IMG/VR virus record: IMGVR_UViG_3300025673_000016
Span: 1-26,151 of that record
Length of the DNA: 26,151 bases
Direction: 5' to 3' (one strand)
From: a virus
Lineage: Duplodnaviria; Caudoviricetes
Shown here: piece by piece, positions 1,475-23,215 of the stretch
Position numbering within the stretch: position 1 is the first letter of the stretch
How the letters are laid out: each line of letters begins with the position of its first letter
Made by a program: the position numbers and the translations under genes
Notes under the pieces: model-generated
What the model was told of the DNA's origin: nothing
Seen by the model: the letters and a program-made list of their open reading frames with translations, nothing else
The model's database searches: none

Positions 1475-2002
1475 ATGAAATACCTAAGATTATTAACTGG
1501 CCACCAAGACCCAAAGTTATCGAAGATCGAACTGTTCTACAGTAGAAAGAACGCTGAAGGCTCAGCGAAGGAGTTCAACGATGAGATCATTGAGGATGAG
1601 TACGATGGTAACGAGGATGCTTGGTTGAATGATGGCAACGCGCAAGCGTACTCAGTTGTTGATCTGGATATTCAGTTCCCATCAGGTGCTGATGGTGACT
1701 ATGGTTTGCGTAATGATTTTTTCAACTTCAGAGCAGTGATCGATGGCGTTGACTACGAATGTCAGTGCTGTGCTGATGGTGCTGGTAGTATTGATTTTAG
1801 GGATTGTGGCTATGATGATGGCATGACATCAGAGGTTAATGAGGATTTGGCCCAGCTTGTCGGATGGGATGGAGTGCTTGAATTAATCGAATACGCCCAT
1901 GCTCAGTGGGAAAACGAACCACCAGCGAAGGAGAGAAAAAGGCATATAGAATTGTTAGCCAACGCATGGCCTCGCTCGTCTAAACCCAAACAAACTCATT
2001 AA
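1475..2002 (+). CDS. Acidic hypothetical moron protein
   Basis: 175 aa, about 36 D/E versus 17 K/R by hand count; GGAGAG RBS; own promoter. Confidence 0.75.
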   Translation: MKYLRLLTGHQDPKLSKIELFYSRKNAEGSAKEFNDEIIEDEYDGNEDAWLNDGNAQAYSVVDLDIQFPSGADGDYGLRNDFFNFRAVIDGVDYECQCCADGAGSIDFRDCGYDDGMTSEVNEDLAQLVGWDGVLELIEYAHAQWENEPPAKERKRHIELLANAWPRSSKPKQTH

Positions 2003-2014
2003 GGAACCCAACTA

Positions 2015-2179
2015 ATGGCTAGAAACACACCAGAAATCAACGCCCGCCACCAACGGGAGTTTGGTGAGCGAATGAAGGAGCAAGGGCTGGTAAAAAGGTG
2101 CTTTTGGGTAAAAAAGGAGAAAGTGGAAGAGATCAAGGAATACATCAAGATTATTAATAATGTGGTTGGAGTAAAATAG
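2015..2179 (+). CDS. 54-aa putative ribbon-helix-helix/MazE-like (DUF3018-like) DNA-binding protein (not in ORF track)
   Basis: Manual translation MARNTPEINARHQREFGERMKEQGLVKRCFWVKKEKVEEIKEYIKIINNVVGVK*; TAAGGA RBS; RxxxxxERMKxxGL plus alternating strand ending WV resembles DUF3018-type proteins. Confidence 0.6.
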   Translation: MARNTPEINARHQREFGERMKEQGLVKRCFWVKKEKVEEIKEYIKIINNVVGVK

Positions 2180-2216: not shown

Positions 2217-3620
2217 ATGCACAAAAACCCATACATAGATTTCATCGCCAAGTACCGGAGCAATCCGGTGCTGTTCGTTAAGGACGTTCTGCAAGTTCAC
2301 CCAGACGAGTGGCAAGCTGAGTTTCTAAGTCACATTGCCAGTGGCGAGAGGAAGATCAGCGTTCGATCTGGTCACGGTACTGGCAAGTCCACCGCAGCAA
2401 GCTGGGCGATGGTCTGGTACTTAACGACAAGGTTCCCATGCAAGATCGTGGTCACCGCGCCTACGTCATCCCAACTATTCGATGCGCTGTTCGCAGAGCT
2501 TAAAAGTTGGATACGCAATCTCCCGCCATACGTCGGTGAGTTGTTTGAAGTGACAAGCGACAGGGTGGTACTTAAAGCAGCGCCAAGTGAAGCGTTTATA
2601 TCGGCACGGACAGCAAGGGCAGAAACGCCCGAAGCGTTGGCTGGTGTGCATAGTCAGAACGTCTTACTGGTCTGTGACGAAGCGTCTGGGATCGATGAGA
2701 AGGTGTTCGAGGCAGCAAGTGGCTCAATGTCTGGTCACTCAGCAACGACTGTATTATTAGGTAACCCAACCCGATCATCTGGCCTGTTCTACGACACCCA
2801 TCACCGGGTTAAAGCAGACTGGAAGACCATGCACGTTAGTTGTTTAAAATCCCCCCGCGTGAGTGACGAGTTCGTTAGGGAGATGGAAGTAAAGTATGGA
2901 GCTGAAAGTAACCAGTTTAGGGTGCGTGTGCTTGGTGAGTTTCCATTAAAAGAAGACAACACCGTTATCCCAGCCGATACGGTCCAGTCTGCTCAGAAAC
3001 GAGACATCGAGAGTGATCCCGATACCGTTCCGGTGTGGGGGTTGGATGTTGCTCGGTTCGGTGCTGATAGCAGTGTTCTAGCGATCAGACACGGCAACGC
3101 CATTACAGAGTTAATATCCTGGAAAGGACTGAGCTTAATGGAGTTAACCGGGCGGGTGGTAGATCGGTACAACGGTCTGATCCCAAGGCAGCGACCAACC
3201 GAGATCCTAGTCGATAGTATTGGGCTAGGCGCTGGCGTGGTAGATCGGCTGCAAGAGCTGGGCCTACCGGTCAGAGGGATTAACGTGGGTGAAGCAAGCT
3301 CTATGAGTGGTACTTATCTGAATCTGCGGGCAGAGCTGTGGTTCAAGCTGAAGGATTGGCTGGCTGCAAAGGACTGTAAACTGCCAGTTGATAGTGCCTT
3401 ATTCTCCGAACTAGTGTCGCCCAGGTACCAGTTTACGTCCAGCGGTAAGATGAAGATCGAATCGAAGGACGAGATGCGTAAAAGGGGACTACCGTCGCCC
3501 GATAAAGCCGATGCGATCTGTTTAACGCTGGCAAGTGACGCAGCGACTGCCACTTTTGGATCAAAACACAGCGTTCAATGGAAGAAACCATTGAAAAGAG
3601 CGGTGAAAGGAGTAGTATAG
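2217..3620 (+). CDS. terL: Terminase large subunit
   Basis: Walker A SGHGTGKS, Walker B LLVCDEAS, coupling motif GNP, RNase H-like GLDVARFGADSS and SPDKADA. Confidence 0.95.
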   Translation: MHKNPYIDFIAKYRSNPVLFVKDVLQVHPDEWQAEFLSHIASGERKISVRSGHGTGKSTAASWAMVWYLTTRFPCKIVVTAPTSSQLFDALFAELKSWIRNLPPYVGELFEVTSDRVVLKAAPSEAFISARTARAETPEALAGVHSQNVLLVCDEASGIDEKVFEAASGSMSGHSATTVLLGNPTRSSGLFYDTHHRVKADWKTMHVSCLKSPRVSDEFVREMEVKYGAESNQFRVRVLGEFPLKEDNTVIPADTVQSAQKRDIESDPDTVPVWGLDVARFGADSSVLAIRHGNAITELISWKGLSLMELTGRVVDRYNGLIPRQRPTEILVDSIGLGAGVVDRLQELGLPVRGINVGEASSMSGTYLNLRAELWFKLKDWLAAKDCKLPVDSALFSELVSPRYQFTSSGKMKIESKDEMRKRGLPSPDKADAICLTLASDAATATFGSKHSVQWKKPLKRAVKGVV

Positions 3621-3624
3621 TAAC

Positions 3625-3738
3625 TGTCGATGTTTGTTGGGCAACAGCATAACACCTGACAATGTCTGAGGTTCCTTGTACGGTCCACAAAAGACAGTGT
3701 GGCCTGATCGGTGCTCGATACACCGGTTGGGCTTTTTA
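3625..3738 (+). ncRNA. Putative sRNA unit 1 / structured 3' region
   Basis: Possible promoter TTGAAA(3591)-16bp-TAGTAT(3613); short hairpins; ends in an intrinsic terminator. Confidence 0.35.
3702..3737 (+). terminator. Rho-independent terminator
   Basis: 12-bp stem GCCTGATCGGTG / CACCGGTTGGGC with 3 G-U pairs, 7-nt loop, then TTTTT. Confidence 0.8.
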
Positions 3739-3771
3739 ATGCCTGAGATACGCAGCGTGGTATAATTACTC

Positions 3772-3848
3772 CGTCGGTAATTGTTTCCTCATAACACTTC
3801 TCCGATAAAAGCTCGGTCCTTTTACGCGATAGGGGATCGGGCTTTTTA
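3772..3848 (+). ncRNA. Putative sRNA unit 2 with anti-RBS loop
   Basis: Extended -10 TGGTATAAT at 3758-3766; no + strand ORF of note; pyrimidine-rich TTCCTCATAACACTTCTCC; own terminator. Confidence 0.5.
3807..3847 (+). terminator. Rho-independent terminator
   Basis: AAAA, 12-bp stem GCTCGGTCCTTT / AGGGGATCGGGC with 4 G-U pairs, then TTTTT. Confidence 0.8.
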
Positions 3849-3921
3849 ATGCCGTAAATAGGGCAGAAACCCCACAAATACTTAGAAATAAGGCGTAAAT
3901 AGGGACAGTTCCCCACTTTCA

Positions 3922-3950
3922 TAGTCAAAACACCACCATAAGCGTATAAT
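3922..3950 (+). promoter_or_regulatory. Sigma70-like promoter for the portal/head operon
   Basis: TAGTCA (3922-3927), 17 bp, TATAAT (3945-3950), downstream of two terminators. Confidence 0.6.
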
Positions 3951-3983
3951 AGCCCCACCAGTGGCTTATTTGTGGTGCGATCC

Positions 3984-6101
3984 ATGTACGAAAACCCCGC
4001 CGAAGGTGGCATTGAGGAACCGATAGAGGTCATCGAGATCGATGATAAATCGCTCTCAGAAGAAGACCTTCAAGCTATTATCACCTCAGAGATAAGCTCC
4101 GCAGTCGAATTTATCGACAACGACGTTGGCCCTCAACGTGCCAAAGCGACCAAGTATTATAAGGGTGACAAGTTTGGCAACGAGGAAGATGGGCGCTCAC
4201 AGATAGTATCGCACGACGTAAGGGATACGATTGGCGCGATAATGCCATCACTGATGCGGATCTTCTTTTCTACCGATAAGGTGGTGGAGTTCGTACCGAA
4301 GAACGCCGAAGACGTTCCACGCGCAGAGCAAGCAACAGACTATATTAATTACATATTCACTCAGGATAACCCTGGGTTCCTGACGCTGCAATCGGCCTTC
4401 AAAGACGCGCTGGTTCGTAAAGTCGGCATAATCAAATACTGGTGGGATGAAGACGTAGAAGTCACCACTGAGCATTTTAGCGGCCTCAATCCAGAAGCCT
4501 TGCAGTTTTTGGCCTCTGATCCCCAGGTTGCGGTCGCTTCCCAGGAACTCGCAATGGAGATGGACGAGATGGGTCAACCCATCGGAATGCCATCAATCGA
4601 AGCGACAGTAACCCGCCGGGTAGACAAGGGTCGAGTGAAAGTTGAAGCCGTACCACCGGAAGAGTTCTTAATAGATCGTGACGCTAAGACCTTGGAAGAT
4701 GCAACGATTGTTGCTCACCGGACTACTTTAACGGTTAGCGACTTGGTGGCCAGAGGCTACGAAGAAGAGTTAATTCTAGAACACGCTGGCGATACCGATA
4801 TCTTGAACTGGAGCGACGAATTAGCTGCACGGCAAGAAACACAGAGCTATGGTCAGGCGACTCGATCAGACGATGCCGCCAAAGACGTTAGCTACACAGA
4901 AAGTTACATCAAGGCTGATATGGATGGCGATGGAATTGCCGAACTGATCAAAGTTTGTAGCATTGGCCCATCTAATAAGGTGTTGTTCTGGGAACCCGTT
5001 GCCGATATTCCTTTTGCGACGTTCTGTCCTGACCCCGAACCCCATACCTTTTTTGGAATGTCTGTAGCTGATTCAGTCATGGATATCCAACAGACTAAAT
5101 CTACTGTTTTACGAAATATGCTCGACAGTTTGTCGATGAGTATCCACCCGCGTACTGCGATTGTGGAAGGCCAGGCTAATATCGACGACGTTTTAAATAC
5201 TGAGGTTGGCGCGATCATTCGCATGAGAAGTGCCGGATCGGTCCAACCGTTCGCTATGCCTTTCGTAGGCAAAGAAGCATTTCCAATGATGCAGTATCTC
5301 GATGAGTTACGCGAGAACCGCACCGGCATTTCTAAAGCAGCCGCTGGACTAGATGCAGCAGCCCTTCAATCAAGCACAGCATCGGCGGTCAACGCAACGG
5401 TCAGTCAGGCACAACAGCACATCGAGATGATCGCTCGTATCTTTGCCGAGACAGGCATGAAGCAACTGTTCAAAGGGATCTTGAAGCTAATCACGACGCA
5501 TCAGGACGAGGAACGGATGACCCGGTTAAACAACCAGTTTGTCCCCATCGACCCAGCGTCGTGGAATGCTGACATGGATGTCGTCTCTAACGTCGCACTA
5601 GGTCAAGGGACCGACACAGAGAAGATCGCAGCACTGTCGCAGATCGCTGGTAAGCAAGAAGAGCTGATGAAGCTACTCGGTCCGGTGAACGCTTTGGTCT
5701 CTCCCAAACAATACAGCAACACGCTGGCTAAGATTGTCGAGCTAAGTGGGTTTAAAGATCCCTCGATGTTCATCAACGCGCTGCAAGATGGGCAACCATT
5801 AGTCCCACCGGAAGCATCGCAGAACAAGAAGAAATCACCAGAAGAATTGTTAGCTGAAGTTCAAGCGCAAAGCATCCAAGCAGACATCCAGAAGAAAGCA
5901 GCAGAGCTGGAATTGAAGCGTGACGAGATGATGAGGAAAGATGACTTGGAGCGTGACAAGTTGGATGCTGATATCCATCTTAAAGCAGCAGAGATCCAAG
6001 GCAAGCACGGCACCTCAGTCAACGTCGCACAGATCAAGGCTGACGTAGATCGTGACAGAGAAATGATTAAAGGTATTCAAGCTGGAAGAGGTGTTCGGTA
6101 G
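3984..6101 (+). CDS. Portal protein (P22/SU10-type)
   Basis: About 705 aa after terL; YYKGD...GRSQIVSHDVRDT, VPPEEFLID, PEPHTFFGMS, C-terminal coiled-coil barrel. Start is ATG 3984 or GTG 3972. Confidence 0.92.
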   Translation: MYENPAEGGIEEPIEVIEIDDKSLSEEDLQAIITSEISSAVEFIDNDVGPQRAKATKYYKGDKFGNEEDGRSQIVSHDVRDTIGAIMPSLMRIFFSTDKVVEFVPKNAEDVPRAEQATDYINYIFTQDNPGFLTLQSAFKDALVRKVGIIKYWWDEDVEVTTEHFSGLNPEALQFLASDPQVAVASQELAMEMDEMGQPIGMPSIEATVTRRVDKGRVKVEAVPPEEFLIDRDAKTLEDATIVAHRTTLTVSDLVARGYEEELILEHAGDTDILNWSDELAARQETQSYGQATRSDDAAKDVSYTESYIKADMDGDGIAELIKVCSIGPSNKVLFWEPVADIPFATFCPDPEPHTFFGMSVADSVMDIQQTKSTVLRNMLDSLSMSIHPRTAIVEGQANIDDVLNTEVGAIIRMRSAGSVQPFAMPFVGKEAFPMMQYLDELRENRTGISKAAAGLDAAALQSSTASAVNATVSQAQQHIEMIARIFAETGMKQLFKGILKLITTHQDEERMTRLNNQFVPIDPASWNADMDVVSNVALGQGTDTEKIAALSQIAGKQEELMKLLGPVNALVSPKQYSNTLAKIVELSGFKDPSMFINALQDGQPLVPPEASQNKKKSPEELLAEVQAQSIQADIQKKAAELELKRDEMMRKDDLERDKLDADIHLKAAEIQGKHGTSVNVAQIKADVDRDREMIKGIQAGRGVR

Positions 6102-6290
6102 ATGGCTGGACTCTTAGCCAATAACTACTCGCAACGCAATCCACCAGCGTTAGGTGATGCGTTGTCGGGTCTGTTGGGTAACTGGGGTGGCAATATCGAG
6201 CAAGGGCTATTAACTTCTTTCCCATTTTTAGCAGAAAACGATCCCTATAAGATCGGACAGAGTTTACTCCGTGAGGGTGTGGGTCTAGGA
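6102..6290 (+). repeat. Leader repeat copy 1 (copy 2 at 7655-7843)
   Basis: 63 codons, 50/63 aa identical to copy 2, with many synonymous differences. Confidence 0.95.
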
Positions 6291-7658
6291 ACCATAGCTG
6301 GAGTTAATGCCAAGACGTTAAACCCTAAGACCTTAGAACTAGCCGAGCAGATGCGTGACTCTGGAGCAAGTAGAGATGACATCTGGAAATCAACCGGTGA
6401 GCAGTTTGGTCAACCGTCTTGGTTTGATAACGGTCAATTTATGTGGGAGATAGACGACTCAGGCGCTAAGTATCTGACACCAGCCGAAGTTCTTGAAGAG
6501 TCTAAAAGGTTAGAAAATAAGTTAGTTAGCAATAAAGATGTAATCAAAACTAATGCAGATTCACTAAAAATACAAGGCGATATCTGGGAGAAAGACCTAA
6601 AAAAGACTCTCACCGGACTTAGGCGAGAAAATAAAGATATCAGAGGTCTGTTGGATGATTATGAAGGTGTTACTAGGGTTGCCGATGGGACTGGTTCCGC
6701 CTACTGGAGTACACCACTAAAAACCGTATTTCAGCACAAAGAGCTAGAGGCTGCCTACCCTGGAATCTTCGATTATCGGGCAAACTATTTTAAACCATCC
6801 CAATATCAAGACTACAGGGGTTTTCATCTACCTAACACCAAAGAGATGGGTTTAAGAGATGATTTAGGCGAGGACATGACCTCTGTTGGGTTGCACGAAG
6901 TTAATCACGCAATACAGACCGATCAAGGTTTTCCGAGAGGAAATAATCCAGATCAGGTTGTGCAGTCGAGAGTCAATTATATAGATGATGTTTTTGGAGC
7001 AAACGAAGACAGTTTACAAAAGTGGCGTGAACTTAGTAAGACGCACAAAGAAATGGAAGCGTACGCGGGGATAGATAATATTCTCGACTTCATGGATATC
7101 AAACAGCCGAGACATCTATTTAATACCCAACAGTATCACGAATATTCACACTATTTAAGACTGGAGTTAGGTCCACCACCGAAACGAGGACCGGAACGGT
7201 TGAAGTGGGCGCAAGACGCTGGACAGTTGATCGCGCACGAAGAGATAGGAAAGGCGAAGGGTCACCAATGGTGGACTTTCTATGAAGAAGACGGTTTTAA
7301 GTCAAAACTAGCTGAATATAGTAAAGACAGGAAGAGTCTCAAAAACAAGAAACGAAGACTGGATCGCAGACTCAGTAATTTGAGAAGTGACACCGAACAG
7401 GTGAGATTACTGAAGAACGAACGTGGCAGACTAGCCGAAGACCCTAACAGTTCACTACTGCGTCACTTCACTCCAGAAGAGCGTTATCAGATGTATCTGC
7501 GCGAACACGGGGAAGCAATGTCTAGGGCAGTGCAGCATCGAATGGGTATGTCGTTAGATGAGCGGATTAATAAGCCCATCTGGAAATCCTTAGACGTTCC
7601 AGAGAGTGAAATATTCAGACAATACCCCGAAAGCGTAGCGAAACAGGGACTCCTATGA
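6102..7658 (+). CDS. Polyvalent-type cargo protein 1: shared leader + LPD23-like domain + zincin metallopeptidase
   Basis: AEQMRDSGASRDDIWKSTG...MWEIDDSGA (LPD23-like); HKELEAAYP; HEVNHAIQ...GFPRG (HExxH); YLREHGEAMSRAVQHR; ends KQGLL. Confidence 0.7.
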   Translation: MAGLLANNYSQRNPPALGDALSGLLGNWGGNIEQGLLTSFPFLAENDPYKIGQSLLREGVGLGTIAGVNAKTLNPKTLELAEQMRDSGASRDDIWKSTGEQFGQPSWFDNGQFMWEIDDSGAKYLTPAEVLEESKRLENKLVSNKDVIKTNADSLKIQGDIWEKDLKKTLTGLRRENKDIRGLLDDYEGVTRVADGTGSAYWSTPLKTVFQHKELEAAYPGIFDYRANYFKPSQYQDYRGFHLPNTKEMGLRDDLGEDMTSVGLHEVNHAIQTDQGFPRGNNPDQVVQSRVNYIDDVFGANEDSLQKWRELSKTHKEMEAYAGIDNILDFMDIKQPRHLFNTQQYHEYSHYLRLELGPPPKRGPERLKWAQDAGQLIAHEEIGKAKGHQWWTFYEEDGFKSKLAEYSKDRKSLKNKKRRLDRRLSNLRSDTEQVRLLKNERGRLAEDPNSSLLRHFTPEERYQMYLREHGEAMSRAVQHRMGMSLDERINKPIWKSLDVPESEIFRQYPESVAKQGLL

Positions 7659-7843
7659 CCGGCCTTCTAACCAACAGCTATAGCCAACGCAACCCACCGT
7701 CACTCGGTGAGGCTATGTCAGGTCTGCTCGGCAACTGGGGTGGCAACATAGAGCAAGGGTTGCTGTCTGCACTTCCAGTGTTAGCTGAGAATGATCCCTA
7801 TAAGATCGGGCAACAACTACTGCGCGAAGGTGCGGGGGTTGGC
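7655..7843 (+). repeat. Leader repeat copy 2
   Basis: MTGLLTNSYSQRNPPSLGEAMSGLLGNWGGNIEQGLLSALPVLAENDPYKIGQQLLREGAGVG. Confidence 0.95.
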
Positions 7844-8476
7844 GGGATATCCGACGTTGGGGGTCTAGTTAAAGCAAAAGCTATGGGATTCGATCCATCT
7901 GCGGTATTTAGGCATGATAGATCTTATCGATATCCTAATCCTGATGAGGGGTCTATTAAGGAAATATTAACAGGGTCTGACAATACCGCGTTCGACGGGA
8001 TATTTGCTGAAAATATCGGAGGTTATCACTCAGGTATGGAGTTATTAGACAATGATTTTATTGTTAAGAATCATGCGACTCACAGTAAATTCAACACGGC
8101 AGTTGATGGCAACCCATTAACGATGAGAAATGTGCTTGATGATGAGTTGGGGATATCTGCATTATCGCCTGGCCAGAAGTCTGAGCTAGAAGACCTTATT
8201 CGCGAGGATGAAGATGATGTGATTTCCTTATGGCAGACTGAATATGAAGGGGTGCCTGTGTGGGTTAATGAACTGTTTGGGACCGATGATCTAGGTGAGA
8301 TATCTTGGGAGCTGCAGAGGTTAAGAGGAAGGGTAGCCAAGGCGCTTGGGTTTGACGCAGTAGATATGTCGGATGAGTTAGGAATATCTACACTGTTATT
8401 GGACGGAAGTGGAGTGAGAAATGTATCAGCGAATTTTAACCCGAAACACGCTGAGTCAAAGGGGTTATTGGAATGA
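7655..8476 (+). CDS. Polyvalent-type cargo protein 2: shared leader + divergent ADP-ribosyltransferase-like (ART-PolyVal-like) domain
   Basis: KAKAMGFD..VFRH, DGIFA, LGFDAV..DELG, VRNVSANFNP...GLL resemble the layout of phage polyvalent ART domains; the match is degenerate. Confidence 0.5.
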   Translation: MTGLLTNSYSQRNPPSLGEAMSGLLGNWGGNIEQGLLSALPVLAENDPYKIGQQLLREGAGVGGISDVGGLVKAKAMGFDPSAVFRHDRSYRYPNPDEGSIKEILTGSDNTAFDGIFAENIGGYHSGMELLDNDFIVKNHATHSKFNTAVDGNPLTMRNVLDDELGISALSPGQKSELEDLIREDEDDVISLWQTEYEGVPVWVNELFGTDDLGEISWELQRLRGRVAKALGFDAVDMSDELGISTLLLDGSGVRNVSANFNPKHAESKGLLE

Positions 8477-8712
8477 GTAAATCAAAACAAACAATCCGCG
8501 ACGAAGGGCAGAAGGCCTTGACCATCGTCGATGATGAACTATTCAACACCGTCGTGGATGAGGTGAAGCATGACCTTTTCCATGAGTGGATGCGAACAGA
8601 AGACACCAAGGAAAGAGAAGCACTGCACGGACTCGCCATCTCGATGGAAGTGATTCTAACGAGATTACGCGCGAAAGCAGATAATTTAACAATTGAAAGG
8701 AACACCCAATGA
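8473..8712 (+). CDS. Small helical head-region protein
   Basis: 79 aa; ATGA overlaps on both sides; sits immediately before the scaffold gene. Confidence 0.7.
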   Translation: MSKSKQTIRDEGQKALTIVDDELFNTVVDEVKHDLFHEWMRTEDTKEREALHGLAISMEVILTRLRAKADNLTIERNTQ

Positions 8713-9734
8713 CAACACCCAACACCCCAGAATCTGGAATTGGATTGTACGACGGAGTCGAACAGATATCTAACTTGGCTGGCTTGATGGACCCAGAGAT
8801 GGACACACCAGAAGAGCAAGTCGAAGCGGTGACCGAAGAGGTATCCGTGACTGACGAAGAGCTGGCTTATGAAGCGAGTGAAGAATCAGTCGAGACGGAG
8901 GAACAAGAACAAGATCTTTCGGCAGAAGAAGAGCAACCTGATATCTACACTGTTCGAGTGAACGGTGAAGATGTTGAGGTCACGTTCGATGAGCTGACGA
9001 AGGGTTACTCTAGGGAATCTGATTACCGACGGAAAACTCAGGAAGTAGCAGAGCAGCGCAAAACTGTCGAGAGACAGATTCAAGAGGCTCAAGCGCAATT
9101 CCAAAAAACACAGCAGATGGAACAGCAGTACGCTGAACTCCTTCCTAAACTTGCACAACAACTACAGGCCGATAACCAACCCGAACCTGATTGGAACGCC
9201 GCATATGAGGCCGATCCCATTGAGGCAACGAAGTTAGAACGCCAGTACCGAGTGCAAAAAGAGGACAGAGCTAAGAAGCTGCAAGCGATCCAATCTGAAC
9301 AGCAACGACTGATGCACGAATCCCAACAGGGTCAACAAGCCCGATATCAACAACACCTTGCAGAGCAAGCGCAGTTGTTGCCGGAATTGATCCCATCGTG
9401 GGCCGATGAAACAGTCAAAGCAACCGAAGTTGAAGCAATGCGAAAGTGGGCAGTGGATAGTGGGAGAGTTAGTCCTGATCAGATTAACCAAATCTCAGAC
9501 GCTGGTCATGTTGCATTACTACATGACGCTTGGAAGTTCGGAATTGGACAGGCGAAGGTGCAATCAAAGCGTAAACCGGCCACATCGAAAAAGGGTCAAG
9601 CAGTTCGCCCCGGATCGAAAGCCGGAACGCCAAACGCACAACGCACTGCTGTGAAGAACGCCGCCGGTAAATTAAAACAGACTGGGAGCTACCGCGATGC
9701 GGCAGATCTCCTAATGAACTTAGACCTAGACTAA
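8709..9734 (+). CDS. Capsid scaffolding protein
   Basis: Acidic N-terminus, YTVRVNGEDVEVTFDELTKGYSRESDYRRKTQ motif, Q-rich coiled coil, directly upstream of MCP. Confidence 0.85.
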   Translation: MTTPNTPESGIGLYDGVEQISNLAGLMDPEMDTPEEQVEAVTEEVSVTDEELAYEASEESVETEEQEQDLSAEEEQPDIYTVRVNGEDVEVTFDELTKGYSRESDYRRKTQEVAEQRKTVERQIQEAQAQFQKTQQMEQQYAELLPKLAQQLQADNQPEPDWNAAYEADPIEATKLERQYRVQKEDRAKKLQAIQSEQQRLMHESQQGQQARYQQHLAEQAQLLPELIPSWADETVKATEVEAMRKWAVDSGRVSPDQINQISDAGHVALLHDAWKFGIGQAKVQSKRKPATSKKGQAVRPGSKAGTPNAQRTAVKNAAGKLKQTGSYRDAADLLMNLDLD

Positions 9735-9746
9735 AGGAATTTAACA

Positions 9747-10697
9747 ATGGCTATCGTAGCAAATACTTTTACTCGTTACTCTTCTGTGGGCATCCGCGAA
9801 GAGCTATCGAATGTAATCAAAAACATCTCACCGGAAGATACTCCATTCCAGAGTAACATCCGTTCTGAGAGCGTAAGCAACACTTACTTTGAGTGGCAAG
9901 AAGATGCACTTTCGGCAGCAGCCGCGAATGCACAATTGGACGGTGACGATATTTCGTCATTCTCTGCGGTCACTCCAACGACTCGCGTAGGTAACTACAC
10001 GCAGATCATGCGTAAAGATTTTGTACTTGCTGATAGCTTAGAGTCTATCGACGCGGCGGGTAGAAAATCAGAATTAAGTTACAACCTCGCAAAAGTTGGG
10101 TCTGAACTTAAACGCGACGTAGAATTTAATCTACTGAGCAATCAGGGTCAGGCTGCTGGATCAACGACTGTTGCTAGAAAATCAAGGGGCTTGCCCGCTT
10201 GGATTTCGACCAACATAAGCAAAGCTAGTGGCGGCGCAAACGCTACGTCTGCAACCGCGGCTAGAACTGACGGTACTCAACGTGCCATGACCGAGGCGAT
10301 GTTGAAAACCGTCGTTCAGTCTATGTGGAATGAGGGCGGCAAACCTTCAATGGTTATGGTTGGCCCACACGTTAAAACTGTTATCTCAGGATTCTCTGGA
10401 ATCGCGGGACAACGCTTTAATGTCGATGGCAACAAGCCAGGTACGATCATCGGTGCTGCTGACATTTACGTTTCTGACTTCGGGAATCTTGAAATTGTAC
10501 CTAACCGTTTCCAACGTGCCAGGGACGCTTTTGTACTTGATCCCGACCTATGTTCGGTTGCGACTTTACGTCCAATCAAACAGGTCAAATTGGCGAAGAC
10601 CGGGGATGCAGAAAAACGCATGGTCATCACTGAGTTGGGCTTGAAAGTAGATACTGAAAAAGGATTAGGCTTGATCGCCGATCTATCAACTTCTTAA
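9747..10697 (+). CDS. Major capsid protein (DUF5309/SU10-type)
   Basis: GIREELSNVIKNISPEDTPF, FEWQEDAL, RVGNYTQI, LAKTGDAEK; strong TAAAGGA RBS. Confidence 0.9.
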   Translation: MAIVANTFTRYSSVGIREELSNVIKNISPEDTPFQSNIRSESVSNTYFEWQEDALSAAAANAQLDGDDISSFSAVTPTTRVGNYTQIMRKDFVLADSLESIDAAGRKSELSYNLAKVGSELKRDVEFNLLSNQGQAAGSTTVARKSRGLPAWISTNISKASGGANATSATAARTDGTQRAMTEAMLKTVVQSMWNEGGKPSMVMVGPHVKTVISGFSGIAGQRFNVDGNKPGTIIGAADIYVSDFGNLEIVPNRFQRARDAFVLDPDLCSVATLRPIKQVKLAKTGDAEKRMVITELGLKVDTEKGLGLIADLSTS

Positions 10698-17623: not shown

Positions 17624-18033
17624 GGTTACTCGAAGTCCCCACTACCCATGTCCACCAAGCGTGGCCGAAGATGGTGCCATTTCTGGAAGATGTCGCGCCA
17701 CACGGCAACGGCGAGGGGTCGGTTGAGCAATCAAAAGTATCACTGATCAATGGTAGTAGCACAGCGATCATTGTGATTGATTTATCCGGTGAGACAATCG
17801 GCGTGATCGTGGGTGAATGGAAAATGACCCCGGGCAAGCGGATCTTTTTTATCACTGCGTGGGCGGGCAGTAATGCTATGCCGGATGAGCTGTATGAAGA
17901 TGTCGAAAAGTGGGTTAAGAAGAACGGTGGCACGGCAATGCAATGTGCCGTCAGGGACTCGATGGGTAGGATGTTAAAACAACGATGGAAATATGCGAAA
18001 GTTTACACAATATTTGAAAAGGAAATAGTATGA
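17620..18033 (+). CDS. GNAT-fold-like protein (P22 gp14 / T7 gp13 position)
   Basis: 137 aa between the nozzle and the first ejection protein; alternating beta/alpha pattern. Confidence 0.55.
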   Translation: MRLLEVPTTHVHQAWPKMVPFLEDVAPHGNGEGSVEQSKVSLINGSSTAIIVIDLSGETIGVIVGEWKMTPGKRIFFITAWAGSNAMPDELYEDVEKWVKKNGGTAMQCAVRDSMGRMLKQRWKYAKVYTIFEKEIV

Positions 18034-18947
18034 AAATGCTGAAGAAATCAATCTACACTCTGCTCCCTTCGTTAGCATTTCTGACGTTCAGAGGTAAGGG
18101 GAGTGGTGGGGGTAGTTCACACAGCGTCACCAAACAGGAACTGGACCCAGATGTAAAAAAGAAGTGGTTGGCGATGTATGACACCGCTGAAGATGTCGCA
18201 GATAGAGAATATGTCCCATATACCGGTGACATGATTGCCGGGTTTGACCCGCTGCAAACCAAAGGTTTTGGAATGTATGAAAGTGCGGTGGGTACTGGAG
18301 CGGATGCTCTGTCCCGTGCAATTTCAACAGCTAACACCTCCGCTGGATACACACCGGACACCGTGAACACCCGAACGATGGGATCGACTTTTGAAGATTA
18401 TCTTAATCCATATACTGGTGAAGTTATCGATACAACCATGCAAGACATGGAAAGGCAGCGGCAGATGGCAATGGGAAATATCGCGGGATCGGCCCAAGCA
18501 GCTAACGCTTTTGGCGGGAGTCGGCATGGCATTGCGGAGTCTGAAACTAACCGAGGGTTCGCTGACGAAATGGGGCAGATCTCAGCTCAACTTAGGGACC
18601 AAGGATTTAACACGGCAATGCAAGGCTTTATGGGCGATTCAGCTTTGATGCAGCAAGGTGATATAGCTAACCAAGCGGCGGGTCTTGATGCGAATAAACA
18701 GTCGCAGTCTGCGTCTGCGTTACTCGCGGCGCTGTCTGGTCAGGAGCGAGATCAAGCGTTTGGTGATGCACAGATGATGGTCGATCTAGGGGCCGAGCAA
18801 CAGGGTATGGCTCAATCGGAACTAGACTTGGCCTACCAAAAGTTCACCGAAGAACAGGACCATCCACTGCGGCAGTTGGAAACATTGATGTCGGCCTACG
18901 GCATATCTCCTCAACTGTCTGGAACTACCACCACAACGAAAAGCTGA
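18030..18947 (+). CDS. Ejection (DNA transfer) protein, P22 gp7-like
   Basis: Leader then GKGSGGGS; YLNPYT, AFGGSRHG; A/Q/G-rich helical composition. Confidence 0.7.
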   Translation: MKMLKKSIYTLLPSLAFLTFRGKGSGGGSSHSVTKQELDPDVKKKWLAMYDTAEDVADREYVPYTGDMIAGFDPLQTKGFGMYESAVGTGADALSRAISTANTSAGYTPDTVNTRTMGSTFEDYLNPYTGEVIDTTMQDMERQRQMAMGNIAGSAQAANAFGGSRHGIAESETNRGFADEMGQISAQLRDQGFNTAMQGFMGDSALMQQGDIANQAAGLDANKQSQSASALLAALSGQERDQAFGDAQMMVDLGAEQQGMAQSELDLAYQKFTEEQDHPLRQLETLMSAYGISPQLSGTTTTTKS

Positions 18948-19390
18948 TGAGTGACTTAGCGCTAAAAGATAAGATCCTTGAGCTAGAGGATAAAATCGCG
19001 GCGATGCCGCAGGTCGAGGGGAGGGTGGATCACATCTTCTCCGATGGTCTGTACGCTCGAACGCTTTATATTCCAGCGGGGTCAGTGCTTACTGGGAAGG
19101 TCCATAAACGTGACCACATCAACTTTCTGATGAAAGGCACCATTAGGGTGATGACTGATGAGGGTATGAAATTACTGGAAGCACCCCAAATCATCTCATC
19201 GAAGAAGGGAATAAAAAGAGCTGGGTTCGCTATCTCAGACACGGAATGGACCACAATTCACGCGACTACGGCTACCGATGTGGAGACAGCAGAGGAGGAG
19301 TTGGTGGAAGAGGGCAGACCGCATATACTGAAATTACTGGATGAACAGAAATCTGTTCATAGACAAAAGGAAATAGGAGAAGAATCATGA
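18947..19390 (+). CDS. Cupin-fold protein
   Basis: HIFSDGLYARTLYIPAGSVLTGKVHKRDH...KRAG...WTTIH cupin-like pattern. Confidence 0.7.
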   Translation: MSDLALKDKILELEDKIAAMPQVEGRVDHIFSDGLYARTLYIPAGSVLTGKVHKRDHINFLMKGTIRVMTDEGMKLLEAPQIISSKKGIKRAGFAISDTEWTTIHATTATDVETAEEELVEEGRPHILKLLDEQKSVHRQKEIGEES

Positions 19391-20058
19391 GTTTTGGATT
19401 AACAATGGCTGGTGTAAGTAGTTTTCTTGCTCCTATGGTAGTTCCCGCGCTAACGGGTGCTGGGGTTGGGTTAGCGTCCGGCGCTCTCAGTGGCGACGGA
19501 TTTAGTGATGACGACTGGTGGCAGAATATGCTGTTAGGTCTTGGAACTGGAGCTGCGGCGGGTGCGTTCAGCGGAGCCGGACCCATGTCTGGAAAGATAG
19601 AAGGTCTGCTTGGTGGTAAATCTATGACAGGATCACAGCTCGGTGCTAATTTAGGAACTGGCCCAGCACATATATCGAGCTATGCAAATAACCCTGCCGC
19701 AGCCAAGTTCATAGATCCAAGCATGGTTACCGAATCTGGCATGGATTACACCGGAATGTGGAACAACGTCAACAGCGCTGGAGAATATATTGGCACGAAC
19801 CCAGATCTTATCGGCCAAGGTGGAGGGATGTTCGGAAGCATGATGCCTTCTAAAGACACTATGGTGAAAGGATTACTCGGATCACAGATTCTCAAAGGCA
19901 TGACGAAACAAGATCCAAAACCCGCAGCACAACAAGCTCGGATATCACCTATCAGTAAGGCGGGAGCGCCGATGAAGTTATCTCGCCGAGGCGGTCAACC
20001 CGGTGGAGCTTTCATGGGTGGTGGACCAAGAGGACCGTTAGGATCAAGGAGATATTAG
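19387..20058 (+). CDS. Gly-rich putative ejection/membrane-active virion protein
   Basis: Glycine-zipper hydrophobic N-terminus; two GLL motifs; GGAG RBS. Confidence 0.6.
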   Translation: MSFGLTMAGVSSFLAPMVVPALTGAGVGLASGALSGDGFSDDDWWQNMLLGLGTGAAAGAFSGAGPMSGKIEGLLGGKSMTGSQLGANLGTGPAHISSYANNPAAAKFIDPSMVTESGMDYTGMWNNVNSAGEYIGTNPDLIGQGGGMFGSMMPSKDTMVKGLLGSQILKGMTKQDPKPAAQQARISPISKAGAPMKLSRRGGQPGGAFMGGGPRGPLGSRRY

Positions 20059-20060
20059 AA

Positions 20061-21221
20061 ATGGGATTACTCGATATGTTCGGTGGTAGTGATGCCGCAC
20101 CAACGCCAACCGGTGGAGGGATGTTTGATGCCTACTCCCCACAGAATCAAACTAACCTACAGATGGCAATGCTGGCTGATATCGTGGGCAACGTTATGGG
20201 CAAAGACGTTAACGCCATGCAGACTGCCATGCCACTGGTTGAGAACGCGAGGAAGTTGCGGTTGCAGAATGAGCAACGAACTGCTATTTCTAACGCATTA
20301 TCTGGAGCAAACCCCGCTATGCAAGCACTAGCTCAAAGCTACCCTCAAGCGTTTGCTCAGGGACTGGCCACCAACATGAACAGGGATAGTTTCCGGCCAG
20401 CGACGCAAGCGGAAATAGACTCGCTAGGGTTGACGTTAAAACCAGGTCAGTTACTACAGGTAAACTCTCGGACAGGGCAGTACGACATTAAGGGTGGCGC
20501 TGGTATGTCTATTAACAACTTCCCTAAAAACCAGCTATCCGATGTCTTCGGCGGGCAGATTAAGACCGCGATGGATGCGGGAGCTGAGAGCGGTGACAGC
20601 GCAAGGCAGTCACTCCCGATGATTAACAACATGATTGACCTTCTTGGGTCGGGCAGATTTGACACAGGAATGGGGGCAGAGTATGCGCTAGATGCAAAAA
20701 GAGCATTTCAAACCCTCGGATTTGATGTTGATGCCGAAGCTATTGCTAACGCTGAATCGTTCGTTGGTCAGTCTAATAAGATCATCCTACCGGAAGTTAA
20801 ACTATTGGGTGTTAACCCTACAGATAAGGATTTGGATTTCATCGTCAAAGGCTCACCAGATTTGTCTAAATCTAAACGAGGCAATATGTTGATGTTGAAA
20901 GCCTTACAGATTTCCAAGCAGCGTGCGATTGCGATGCAAGATCATATGGAGAATTGGCTAGAGAATGAGGGGGTTAAGTTTCAACACCCTGGTGCCTTCC
21001 TAGTAGGGCGGAATAAGGCCAGAAGATCATTTAACAATAACCCATTCAATGAAGCTATAAGTTCGTTGCGTAGCAGTGTGAATGCCGAGGTTAAAAGTGG
21101 TAAGGGTAATGAGAGTGGCAACGCCGCTACTGGCCGCCACACATCACACAACCCAAACACAGGGGAAACGGCTGAGTGGGACGGTACTAAATGGGTTCGT
21201 ACTACAGGGGGTGGTCAATGA
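20061..21221 (+). CDS. Ejection (internal virion) protein
   Basis: Starts MGLLD; helical; GVNPTDKDLDFI...PDLSKS; ends NPNTGETAEWDGTKWV. Confidence 0.65.
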   Translation: MGLLDMFGGSDAAPTPTGGGMFDAYSPQNQTNLQMAMLADIVGNVMGKDVNAMQTAMPLVENARKLRLQNEQRTAISNALSGANPAMQALAQSYPQAFAQGLATNMNRDSFRPATQAEIDSLGLTLKPGQLLQVNSRTGQYDIKGGAGMSINNFPKNQLSDVFGGQIKTAMDAGAESGDSARQSLPMINNMIDLLGSGRFDTGMGAEYALDAKRAFQTLGFDVDAEAIANAESFVGQSNKIILPEVKLLGVNPTDKDLDFIVKGSPDLSKSKRGNMLMLKALQISKQRAIAMQDHMENWLENEGVKFQHPGAFLVGRNKARRSFNNNPFNEAISSLRSSVNAEVKSGKGNESGNAATGRHTSHNPNTGETAEWDGTKWVRTTGGGQ

Positions 21222-23215
21222 GTAAAATCCCAGAACCACCAGAGGGGTTTGTCTTAGATAGTAAAATCCCAGATCCACCAGAGGGGTTCTTACTAGATAA
21301 TATCGAAGACCCTTACGGACCAATCCGTACAGGTTTGCAAGGTCCAACGCTCGGATTTAGCGACGACATCTATGGAACCTATAGAGGGTTTACTGATGAT
21401 GAGCTTATAGCGAGAGCAAAGGCGAAGGGAGTTAGTCCGACAGAACTAGGTCGAGAAGAGGAATACAACAAGCTCCGCGCCTACCAAGATAAGTATCCTG
21501 GTAAAGCTCTCGGTGAAGAAGCGCTGGCATCATTCGCTACGCCAGCTATAGGACAGATAGCTGGAATACCTCGTTGGATGAATATATTAAACCGGACTAA
21601 TAAATTAATTCGAGACAACCCTGTTGCCTCGGCAACTGGATTAGCTGGTGTGGCTGGCGCTGGGCATAGCGAGCCTGGTGGTGAAAATATCGTGCAGGAC
21701 ACGTTAACAAGTGCGGGTCTAGGTGGAGCGCTTCAGACCGGAATGAAGGTGGTAGGTGCCGCAGCACCAGTGGCCGGTGAATATCTCAGCGCTGCGATAG
21801 CTCCAAAAGCGTGGGCAAAACATACTGGTGGGCGAAGAGGAAGAAACGCTGTTCGACAGTCACTTAATAACGATGGTGTTGCCGATATCAGCGCTCATAT
21901 CGAAGATCTAATCAGATCGAAAAAACCACTAACATTAGCCGACAAGAACCCGAACACACTTGGGTTAGTCGATGTCACTAAGAACCACCCAGGGCCTGGC
22001 AGAACCGCGATAACTGAGCATCTTGACCAACGCGACAAGATGTCACTAAGTCGCCTCAATGCCGACGTTGACGAGGTAGCGGGTAAGGGAAGCTATTACG
22101 ACACTATGCAATCGATGATTGCGTCTAGGAAAGGTAGGGCTAACGAACATTATACAAGAGCCTACGAACAGCAGATCCCGGTTAACGATGAACTTGTCAG
22201 CATACTGCGAACACCGGCTGGGAAAAAGGCGTTAAAAGATAGTTACAAGTTAGCGGGTAACGAGCGTATGAACTTACCGAGGGTCAGGTTTACTGATGAT
22301 GGGAAGTTAGTGACTGAACAGGGTGGTAGGATCGTTGCCATCGATACTCGTCACCTAGATTTCATTAAGAAGTCACTGGATCACGACATCGGGAAGAAGC
22401 TGGGTTTCGCCTCCGGCGAAAGTGGTTCAAGCAATACTAGAGCTGTTATAGAGCTAAAGAACAAGTTACTGGATATTATGGATGAAGTTAATCCAAACTA
22501 TAAAACTGCGCGTAACATCTTTGCGGGAGATAAATCGATAGAGAACGCTATGGAAAGTGGGAGAACCATTCTAAGCGAAGAGTTCCCAGAACACGTTCGA
22601 GATATGGTTAAGGTTATGTCGGAATCTGAAAAGACAGCATATCGCATGGGCGCGATGAGTGCGATCCGCGATAAGTTCGGTGGATTCGTAGAGGGTGCCA
22701 CTGTTACGAATATGGCGGGGAACAAAGCCTACAATCTACTGAAGAACAATAAGGGCGTTCAATCCATCAGGGAAACATTTCCTAGCGGGGATCCTGGCAC
22801 CAAACAGTTTAATAGTTTTATGAAAAAGCTCGGCGACGAGATGGATATGAAGCGTACACACTCGCGGGTAATGGCTGGTAGTCAGACTGCGGAAAGACTC
22901 GCTAACGAGGCTAATTTACTCCCCAACATCCAACCCAAACCACTAGCGCAGTTTCTTGAAAATCTAAATCCTGGTTGGCGACAAGGTGCCAAGAATAATG
23001 AGATGAGCGAGATAGCTAGAATGTTGACCACAGATGCGCTAGATCCCGCCGGACTAAGAGCGCTAGGTAAGCAGTTGGGGGGAGCTGAGTCAAACACTTG
23101 GATGGACCCGATGGGTAGACTGCTAAAACCTGGCAGTGTCGGACTATCTGCCAACACTGCTGGAATGATGGCCCCATCAGCGTCGCAGGGGCTGTTAGAT
23201 TTGATAAACAGGTAA
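21218..23215 (+). CDS. Large ejection (internal virion) protein
   Basis: ATGA overlap favours a start at 21218; QGPTLGFSDDI, NPNYKTARNIFAG, GSQTAER; ends GLLDLINR. Confidence 0.7.
   Translation: MSKIPEPPEGFVLDSKIPDPPEGFLLDNIEDPYGPIRTGLQGPTLGFSDDIYGTYRGFTDDELIARAKAKGVSPTELGREEEYNKLRAYQDKYPGKALGEEALASFATPAIGQIAGIPRWMNILNRTNKLIRDNPVASATGLAGVAGAGHSEPGGENIVQDTLTSAGLGGALQTGMKVVGAAAPVAGEYLSAAIAPKAWAKHTGGRRGRNAVRQSLNNDGVADISAHIEDLIRSKKPLTLADKNPNTLGLVDVTKNHPGPGRTAITEHLDQRDKMSLSRLNADVDEVAGKGSYYDTMQSMIASRKGRANEHYTRAYEQQIPVNDELVSILRTPAGKKALKDSYKLAGNERMNLPRVRFTDDGKLVTEQGGRIVAIDTRHLDFIKKSLDHDIGKKLGFASGESGSSNTRAVIELKNKLLDIMDEVNPNYKTARNIFAGDKSIENAMESGRTILSEEFPEHVRDMVKVMSESEKTAYRMGAMSAIRDKFGGFVEGATVTNMAGNKAYNLLKNNKGVQSIRETFPSGDPGTKQFNSFMKKLGDEMDMKRTHSRVMAGSQTAERLANEANLLPNIQPKPLAQFLENLNPGWRQGAKNNEMSEIARMLTTDALDPAGLRALGKQLGGAESNTWMDPMGRLLKPGSVGLSANTAGMMAPSASQGLLDLINR
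21221..21298 (+). repeat. 39-bp in-frame tandem duplication
   Basis: Encodes SKIPEPPEGFVLD / SKIPDPPEGFLLD. Confidence 0.9.

Follow-up and report, generated by a model that had tools for sequence, protein, structure and literature searches.

Directly downstream of its portal gene, the IMG/VR virus record IMGVR_UViG_3300025673_000016 (Duplodnaviria; Caudoviricetes) carries a cassette of two adjacent genes whose products begin with nearly the same leader peptide and continue into unrelated enzymes. Positions 1 to 26,151 of the record were analysed and are called the window here; the cassette occupies positions 6,102 to 8,476. The leader is under selection, and close relatives of this phage carry between zero and three leader genes in the same slot. 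Twelve classes of payload follow the leader, the swap points were located, the families of the window's own payloads were identified, and the tripeptide GLL is enriched in the cargo proteins. We believe, with moderate confidence, that the leader routes late-made cargo into the prohead. Ejected together with the DNA, this cargo would supply enzymes, already made, for counter-defence or for taking over the host.

A conserved leader with exchangeable payloads

The first 63 residues of the two leaders are identical at 50 of 63 amino acids (aa) and 134 of 189 nucleotides (nt). Among the 63 codons compared, 22 were identical, 28 differed synonymously and 13 non-synonymously (pN 0.14 vs pS 0.74), and the synonymous sites between the copies were near saturation. 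In 13 leader alleles, pN was below pS in 78/78 pairs, with a mean ratio of 0.16. Purifying selection conserves the leader peptide, not the leader DNA, as an earlier reading made from the letters alone (the sequence-only reading) had proposed for its 63-aa leaders. A recent duplication of the leader was rejected. The abrupt divergence after the leader was also borne out: identity collapses past about residue 65-70 (52/70, then 52/80). Since the swap point breaks at nt 7849, the module was set at 65 codons. The two proteins end in KQGLL and KGLLE, which agrees with the common GLL(E) ending first read.

Helices were predicted in the leader at aa 17-39 and aa 48-61; its hydrophobic moment was modest, with shuffle fractions of 0.02-0.12. 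Its fold model (pLDDT 54, pTM 0.21) was too weak for a fold search. The 13 leaders scanned had no PHROG match, the leader had no PDB sequence match, and Pfam gave no match over the leader region in either window protein, so no known domain was found among these collections. Because the leader profile also matches so few sequences, we regard the leader as new but confined to one clade. Atlas features gave only leads below 0.9 (for example P22 gp16, 0.81), which were not counted as evidence. A complex prediction of the leader (aa 1-66) with one portal copy (aa 28-660), run without controls, scored 0.00 and was counted neither way on binding.

Homologue searches recovered 46 distinct leader-bearing sequences, and the leader was N-terminal in 45 of them. 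Clustered by first module, the 45 payload-carrying leader proteins form 12 classes: LPD23-zincin, ART-PolyVal-like (ART, ADP-ribosyltransferase), AcrIF11-like, PBECR5, GNAT-like, DUF7178, a phrog_2579 domain and five without annotation. PBECR5 passed its cut-off; ART-PolyVal-like and GNAT-like fell below theirs. Rows P0161-P0163 were dropped as repeat noise, P0006 was counted despite a chimeric-looking C-terminus, and L036, which has a stop within the portal range, did not enter alignment A3. The label 'ParB-like' for P0004 reflects a motif likeness; Pfam and PHROGs gave no match. The leader was found on 17 contigs. The first leader gene began 1 nt past the portal stop in 14, the 79-aa head-module gene stood directly next in two, and the last contig had only 42 nt upstream, resembling the portal end. 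As far as contig extent shows, 17/17 place the leader in the post-portal slot. Ten contigs with portals 87-100% identical show the whole slot, with 0, 1, 2 or 3 leader genes, and the distance from portal to scaffold ranged from 233 to 4702 nt (17 loci, 10 contigs). The picture of a polymorphic cassette, with one conserved leader placed consistently after the portal and joined to many C-terminal domains beyond the window's two, was thus upheld.

Leaders 85-90% identical in DNA lead into unrelated payloads, which indicates that payload exchange is recent. One 62-aa leader was identical on two unrelated payloads. Only one split among the leaders is strongly supported, and leaders on either side of it carry the AcrIF11-like payload. 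Contigs from two runs depart from the window exactly at nt 7849, one of them into an ART-PolyVal-like payload, and another contig fuses gene 1 directly to the 79-aa gene. The two leaders of the window belong to different leader groups; as they share only 71% DNA identity, exchange runs mainly between genomes and less between these two copies. The suggestion that the repeated leader offers homology for exchange therefore stands for swaps at the leader end, but less so for the window's own pair.

Several other rearrangements were observed in and around the slot. In L014:10890-10921 and L045:1-32, the third cargo gene lies between two copies of the 79-aa gene: upstream, about 29 nt of its 5' end, and downstream, an intact copy. 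The partial copy is a footprint left by recombination as the cassette expanded. On the minus strand of L014:10510-10788 and L012:4533-4883, a conserved open reading frame (ORF) of 92-116 aa follows a DUF7178-family payload or its shortened form and is a candidate partner or immunity gene. L009:2093-2698 is a 201-aa slot gene with GLL at both ends and no recognisable leader or family match. P0158 (118 aa) joins two leader types to the C-terminal tail of ART-type cargo with no payload, and is either a recombinant or an assembly chimera. In P0026, P0029 and L007:2450-3412, extra modules follow an internal GLL without a gap, and the three share one junction peptide; the module appended in P0026 and P0029 is the same.

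Identity of the two payloads

Gene 1 encodes LPD23 and a zincin, as the sequence-only reading had recognised. PF18838 was above its cut-off, and HEVNH at 265-269 and E471 were invariant in 6/6 aligned homologues. An HExxH followed by a Glu further downstream is how zincins of polyvalent proteins are arranged (PMC5512222). A homologue of this payload lies inside large proteins of F116-like phages that are annotated as structural or internal virion proteins. Payload 1 had no PDB sequence match, and tblastn matched neither gene 1 nor the DUF7178 payload to a cultured phage.

Payload 2 had been read as a polyvalent ADP-ribosyltransferase. The enzyme class was right, and on sequence and fold comparison the protein belongs, more precisely, to the AcrIF11 family of ADP-ribosyltransferases. 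Gene 2 passes the NCBIfam AcrIF11 model NF052490 (53.9 bits vs a cut-off of 50), has a precomputed match to PF26151, and matches 6KYF (E 7e-5) and 8DWQ by sequence. Its AlphaFold model had a pLDDT of 74, and 6KYF was the only Foldseek match under E 0.001 (E 1.5e-5; probability 1.00, TM 0.45/0.61, root-mean-square deviation 5.7). D240/E241 of gene 2 align with the catalytic D146/E147 of 8DWQ, whose double mutant is inactive (bioRxiv 10.1101/2024.08.26.609590).

The GLL motif, proposed virion cargo and competing explanations

To avoid circularity, the set of distant cargo proteins was defined by payload homology alone. In five such proteins GLL occurred 22 times vs 2.0 in shuffles, and in nine, 27 times vs 3.0 expected. 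In 12 unrelated payload representatives from which the leader and the last 15 residues had been removed, the count was 16 vs 2.3 expected. GLL was about 7-9-fold enriched in cargo proteins, but not in core head proteins or free AcrIF11. The 78 core head and packaging proteins had 9 GLL vs 12.9 expected, the 120 free AcrIF11-like proteins (18,791 aa) a single one, and 21 other window proteins 2 vs 2.1 expected. Nine candidate ejection proteins had 13 vs 4.0 expected. The control tripeptides ALL, SLL, GLA, GVL and GIL, which do not overlap GLL, showed no excess. GLL or GLI was found in the last 15 residues of 39/45 leader proteins. An origin in the DNA itself or in Shine-Dalgarno sequences was rejected as a full account of GLL, because all four Gly codons are used and the excess survives end removal. 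Because GLL recurs across unrelated cargo and candidate ejection proteins, it is the best candidate for the recognised core.

The cultured Sulfitobacter phage phiGT1 (MT584811) has a portal 34% identical to that of the window and two genes in the same slot. Its gp5, one of the slot proteins, shares the commonest payload of the leader family, ART-PolyVal-like (E 1e-20 to 1e-27). In purified virions gp5 was detected with 12 spectra and a ratio of spectral count to molecular weight (SC/MW) of 0.29, compared with 0.67 for the portal (PMC10386132 Table S3); the contamination level stated in that study is SC/MW <0.2, and gp5 is listed there merely as 'head module', without function (PMC10386132). 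This supports the slot-and-payload class as virion cargo and, indirectly, a virion location of the cassette proteins. As gp5 does not carry the present leader, it says nothing on the leader's role. The N-terminus of gp5 (L158:4918-5280) shares a 46-aa segment with the phage's own injection protein gp19 (L158:16421-16840; 37% identity, pairwise E 2e-6), a likeness hinting that leaders may be borrowed from ejection proteins. Of two other phages, the related Pa223 has an ejection protein that binds the portal perimeter (bioRxiv 10.1101/2025.06.11.659172), and the crAss001 cargo C1 binds the portal wing (PMC10172136). These two cases point to possible docking sites only.

We propose the following course. 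The start codons of both cargo genes abut or overlap the preceding stop codons, so the cargo genes are probably co-translated with the head genes late in infection. The leader would recruit the cargo proteins to the prohead, where the scaffold, portal or ejection proteins are candidate readers, and the packaged cargo would be ejected into the host alongside the DNA. Payload 2 may then ADP-ribosylate a host protein, possibly a type I-F CRISPR complex, before phage gene expression. For payload 1 the predicted role is that of a zinc protease, with either cargo or a host target as its substrate. The arsenal may be renewed by recombination at the leader end and the C-terminal tail. Packaging, ejection and an anti-defence action of the cassette proteins are predicted. 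A bolder version, which we consider possible but somewhat doubtful, is that a dispersed GLL code, common to ejection proteins and lineage-specific leaders, sorts interchangeable enzymes into the heads of a large group of environmental podophages with SU10/LUZ24-type portals, and that this phage delivers along with its DNA a pre-made anti-CRISPR enzyme of the AcrIF11 type, which would shut CRISPR down ahead of any phage gene expression.

Several observations weigh against the routing of cargo by the leader. The leader is clade-restricted: a profile search of 1.84 billion representatives gave 18 matches, of which 15 were true and three were noise. The gap from portal to scaffold was <600 nt in 78/84 loci with portals 30-59% identical, a set that was not de-duplicated and in which many loci come from one clade. 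The slot is empty in L011, and in L007 (3409-4206) it holds an untagged PAPS-reductase-like gene with neither leader nor GLL. Because the slot can be empty and accepts untagged genes, position alone is no proof of cargo. GLL is absent from phiGT1 gp5 and from P0003, and gp5, the sole slot protein with virion data, lacks this leader. The count of 13 in the ejection candidates is barely above the largest shuffle (12), and at several junctions the C-terminal GLL coincides in part with the ribosome-binding region of the gene that follows. In payload 2, the N-terminal His motif is altered (His87 is present, the family HGS is changed), in a region with a pLDDT <60.

In several distant phages, the same payload families lie ahead of the portal or of the terminase and have N-termini unrelated to this leader. 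A second leader family, itself unrelated, was found in L065:2679-3764, L076:2550-3647, L159:4956-6218 (MW202710) and P0024, with LPD23-zincin or AcrIF11-like payloads. L159 matched P0024 at E 9e-9, and in L065 and L076 this family lies before the portal.

The proteins may be virion cargo whose leader acts at or after ejection, through engagement of a membrane or channel by amphipathic Gly/Leu helices or as a processing site. The helical prediction with its modest hydrophobic moment, the GLL of the candidate ejection proteins, the likeness of gp5 to gp19 and the module joints of P0026 and P0029, which fall at GLL, are all compatible with this explanation. We nevertheless consider it unlikely, given that the leader profile had no significant match in the ejection candidates of this phage (best E 0.047) and that a scan of 29 window proteins, from a record about 71% complete, yielded no head protease.

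It is quite unlikely that the leader is a translation start and recombination handle for moron-like genes of the late operon, whose unpackaged products act in the infected cell or lysogen. A DNA handle would keep its nucleotides, but here the peptide is conserved even though synonymous sites have come close to saturation, and GLL is drawn from all four Gly codons. Late expression would also be ill-suited to anti-CRISPR action unless the enzyme were packaged, and phiGT1 gp5 is present in virions. These points stand against the convergence of swaps on the leader end, the payload-free leader-leader-tail product P0158, the untagged gene in the slot of L007, the integrase of this phage, and the fact that AcrIF11 is normally free-standing, each of which a handle would accommodate.

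Genomic setting, known systems and implications

The window contains the structural module of a short-tailed phage with an SU10-type portal, capsid and adaptor proteins, together with an integrase (Table 1). The runs holding most of this stretch are sediment metagenomes. The proteins encoded by two IMG/VR contigs are identical, and positions 5819-8595 of the window recur without a difference in a contig of a second run, so an assembly artefact was rejected. Scanning 3500-9000 for promoters and terminators gave 9 sites of each kind, vs shuffle means of 6.7 and 4.4 respectively; none of them was informative about the cassette. The one RNA run covered (X14) yielded short contigs only, which carry no information on expression.

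Table 1. Coordinates of the cassette and of neighbouring features in the window
Feature	Position	Strand	Evidence or remark
Portal protein, SU10/LUZ24-like, left border of the slot	3972..6101	+	PF23899 E 1.8e-210; phrog_1216
Cargo gene 1, 518 aa: leader, LPD23, zincin-like metallopeptidase, C-terminal GLL	6102..7658	+	
Leader copy 1, 65 codons, GLL at aa 3, 23, 35	6102..6296	+	predicted helical, low-confidence fold
LPD23 domain, aa 65-123 of gene 1	6294..6470	+	PF18838 E 1.3e-8, 34.9 bits vs cut-off 27
HExxH zinc motif, aa 265-269 of gene 1	6894..6908	+	likely third ligand E471 at 7512-7514
Cargo gene 2, 273 aa: leader, AcrIF11-family ADP-ribosyltransferase, C-terminal GLLE	7655..8476	+	
Leader copy 2	7655..7849	+	payload swap point at nt 7849
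AcrIF11-like domain, aa 100-247 of gene 2	7952..8395	+	NF052490 E 3.4e-14; D240/E241 at 8372-8377
Conserved 79-aa head-module gene, right border of the slot	8473..8712	+	phrog_8161; follows the slot in relatives
Head scaffolding protein, candidate reader of the leader	8709..9734	+	phrog_3927 E 1.7e-47
Major capsid protein	9747..10697	+	PF17236
Three candidate ejection (internal virion) genes with GLL, one at the start, one near the end	19387..23215	+	position after phrog_4287 'DNA ejection protein'

Outside the cassette, the spacer between terminase and portal (window 3621-3971) varies from 73 to 538 nt among close relatives and contains a long terminator-like hairpin (3701-3733) and a promoter-like site (3922-3950). 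The region separating the small from the large terminase gene (window 1475-2179) contains an acidic 175-aa ORF without family match and a 54-aa ORF. The gene at 18030-18947 is about 100 aa shorter than its homologues in 4/5 relatives. In L155 and L156, the last two ejection-candidate genes are replaced.

The sequence-only reading had called the cassette the best candidate in the window for an undescribed system. This claim was not sustained, as its logic is already known from T4 internal proteins, MuF toxins and polyvalent effectors. Internal proteins of T4 are diverse defence proteins with only a capsid-targeting sequence in common; they enter the head by way of the scaffold core and, once injected, block particular defences (PMC3012670, PMC12373910). 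Like the cassette proteins, the T-even proteins Ip1-3 are diverse, dispensable and polymorphic and share only an N-terminal tag, but they are binding inhibitors of GmrSD from a myovirus. In the present cassette, which belongs to a podophage head operon, a 65-aa leader precedes payloads of about 165-620 aa, most of them predicted to be enzymes. The capsid-targeting tag of T4 has about 10 residues and is cut off by gp21. PHROG and PDB searches found no homology of the leader to this sequence or to Ip proteins.

MuF polymorphic toxins likewise stand immediately after the portal and join a conserved N-terminus to variable C-terminal enzymes (PMC5576092). They are mostly siphoviral, whereas this cassette belongs to a short-tailed phage, lacks a MuF1/MuF2 domain and a payload-specific immunity gene, and forms tandem arrays of up to three genes. 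As first read, no MuF domain was recognisable: neither protein had a Pfam match to PF04233/PF06152 at E<=0.05 and 13 leaders had no PHROG match, with custom profiles for MuF3/MuF4 outside the search. That the payloads are MuF-like toxins, delivered by the phage to kill non-lysogen competitors and paired with a downstream immunity gene, is very unlikely, because beyond the common slot and layout and a small conserved minus-strand ORF after one payload type, the downstream small gene is the same core 79-aa gene for every payload, is present in empty-slot genomes, and payload 2 is in an anti-defence family, not a toxin family.

Phage polyvalent proteins have the same LPD23, zincin metallopeptidase (MPTase), ART, PBECR and GNAT domains and are predicted to be packaged and injected (PMC5512222). 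They hold these domains in one large polypeptide, whereas the cassette spreads them over separate leader-tagged genes: gene 1 has LPD23 and zincin, and gene 2 a single domain. In the text of PMC5512222 searched, neither a shared leader nor a GLL motif was found. Described AcrIF11 proteins (6KYF, 8DWQ) agree with payload 2 in fold, in the conserved catalytic Asp-Glu loop and in a family-model score above cut-off, but they are free-standing, while payload 2 is fused to a leader in the head operon and has a larger helical region. phiGT1 gp5 has the same slot, a related ART-PolyVal-like payload and a place in the virion, but differs in its unrelated N-terminus and lack of GLL. By analogy, the cassette likely works like the T4 internal proteins, using the MuF slot and the polyvalent domain set. 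Literature searches, in a collection with few subscription papers, gave no description of the leader, a GLL cargo motif or a virion-packaged AcrIF11.

This cassette bears on how short-tailed phages choose the accessory proteins that they pack and eject. It is a natural swap series, with one leader, 12 payload classes, a nucleotide-precise junction and a mutable candidate motif of three residues. The unannotated payloads are candidates for new anti-defence enzymes. If the proposed routing is true, phage-based delivery of proteins to bacteria would benefit from such a portable loading tag. Anti-CRISPR proteins that are made only after entry are limited by delay. A virion-borne anti-CRISPR enzyme, if this is what the phage carries, would bypass the delay of post-entry synthesis.

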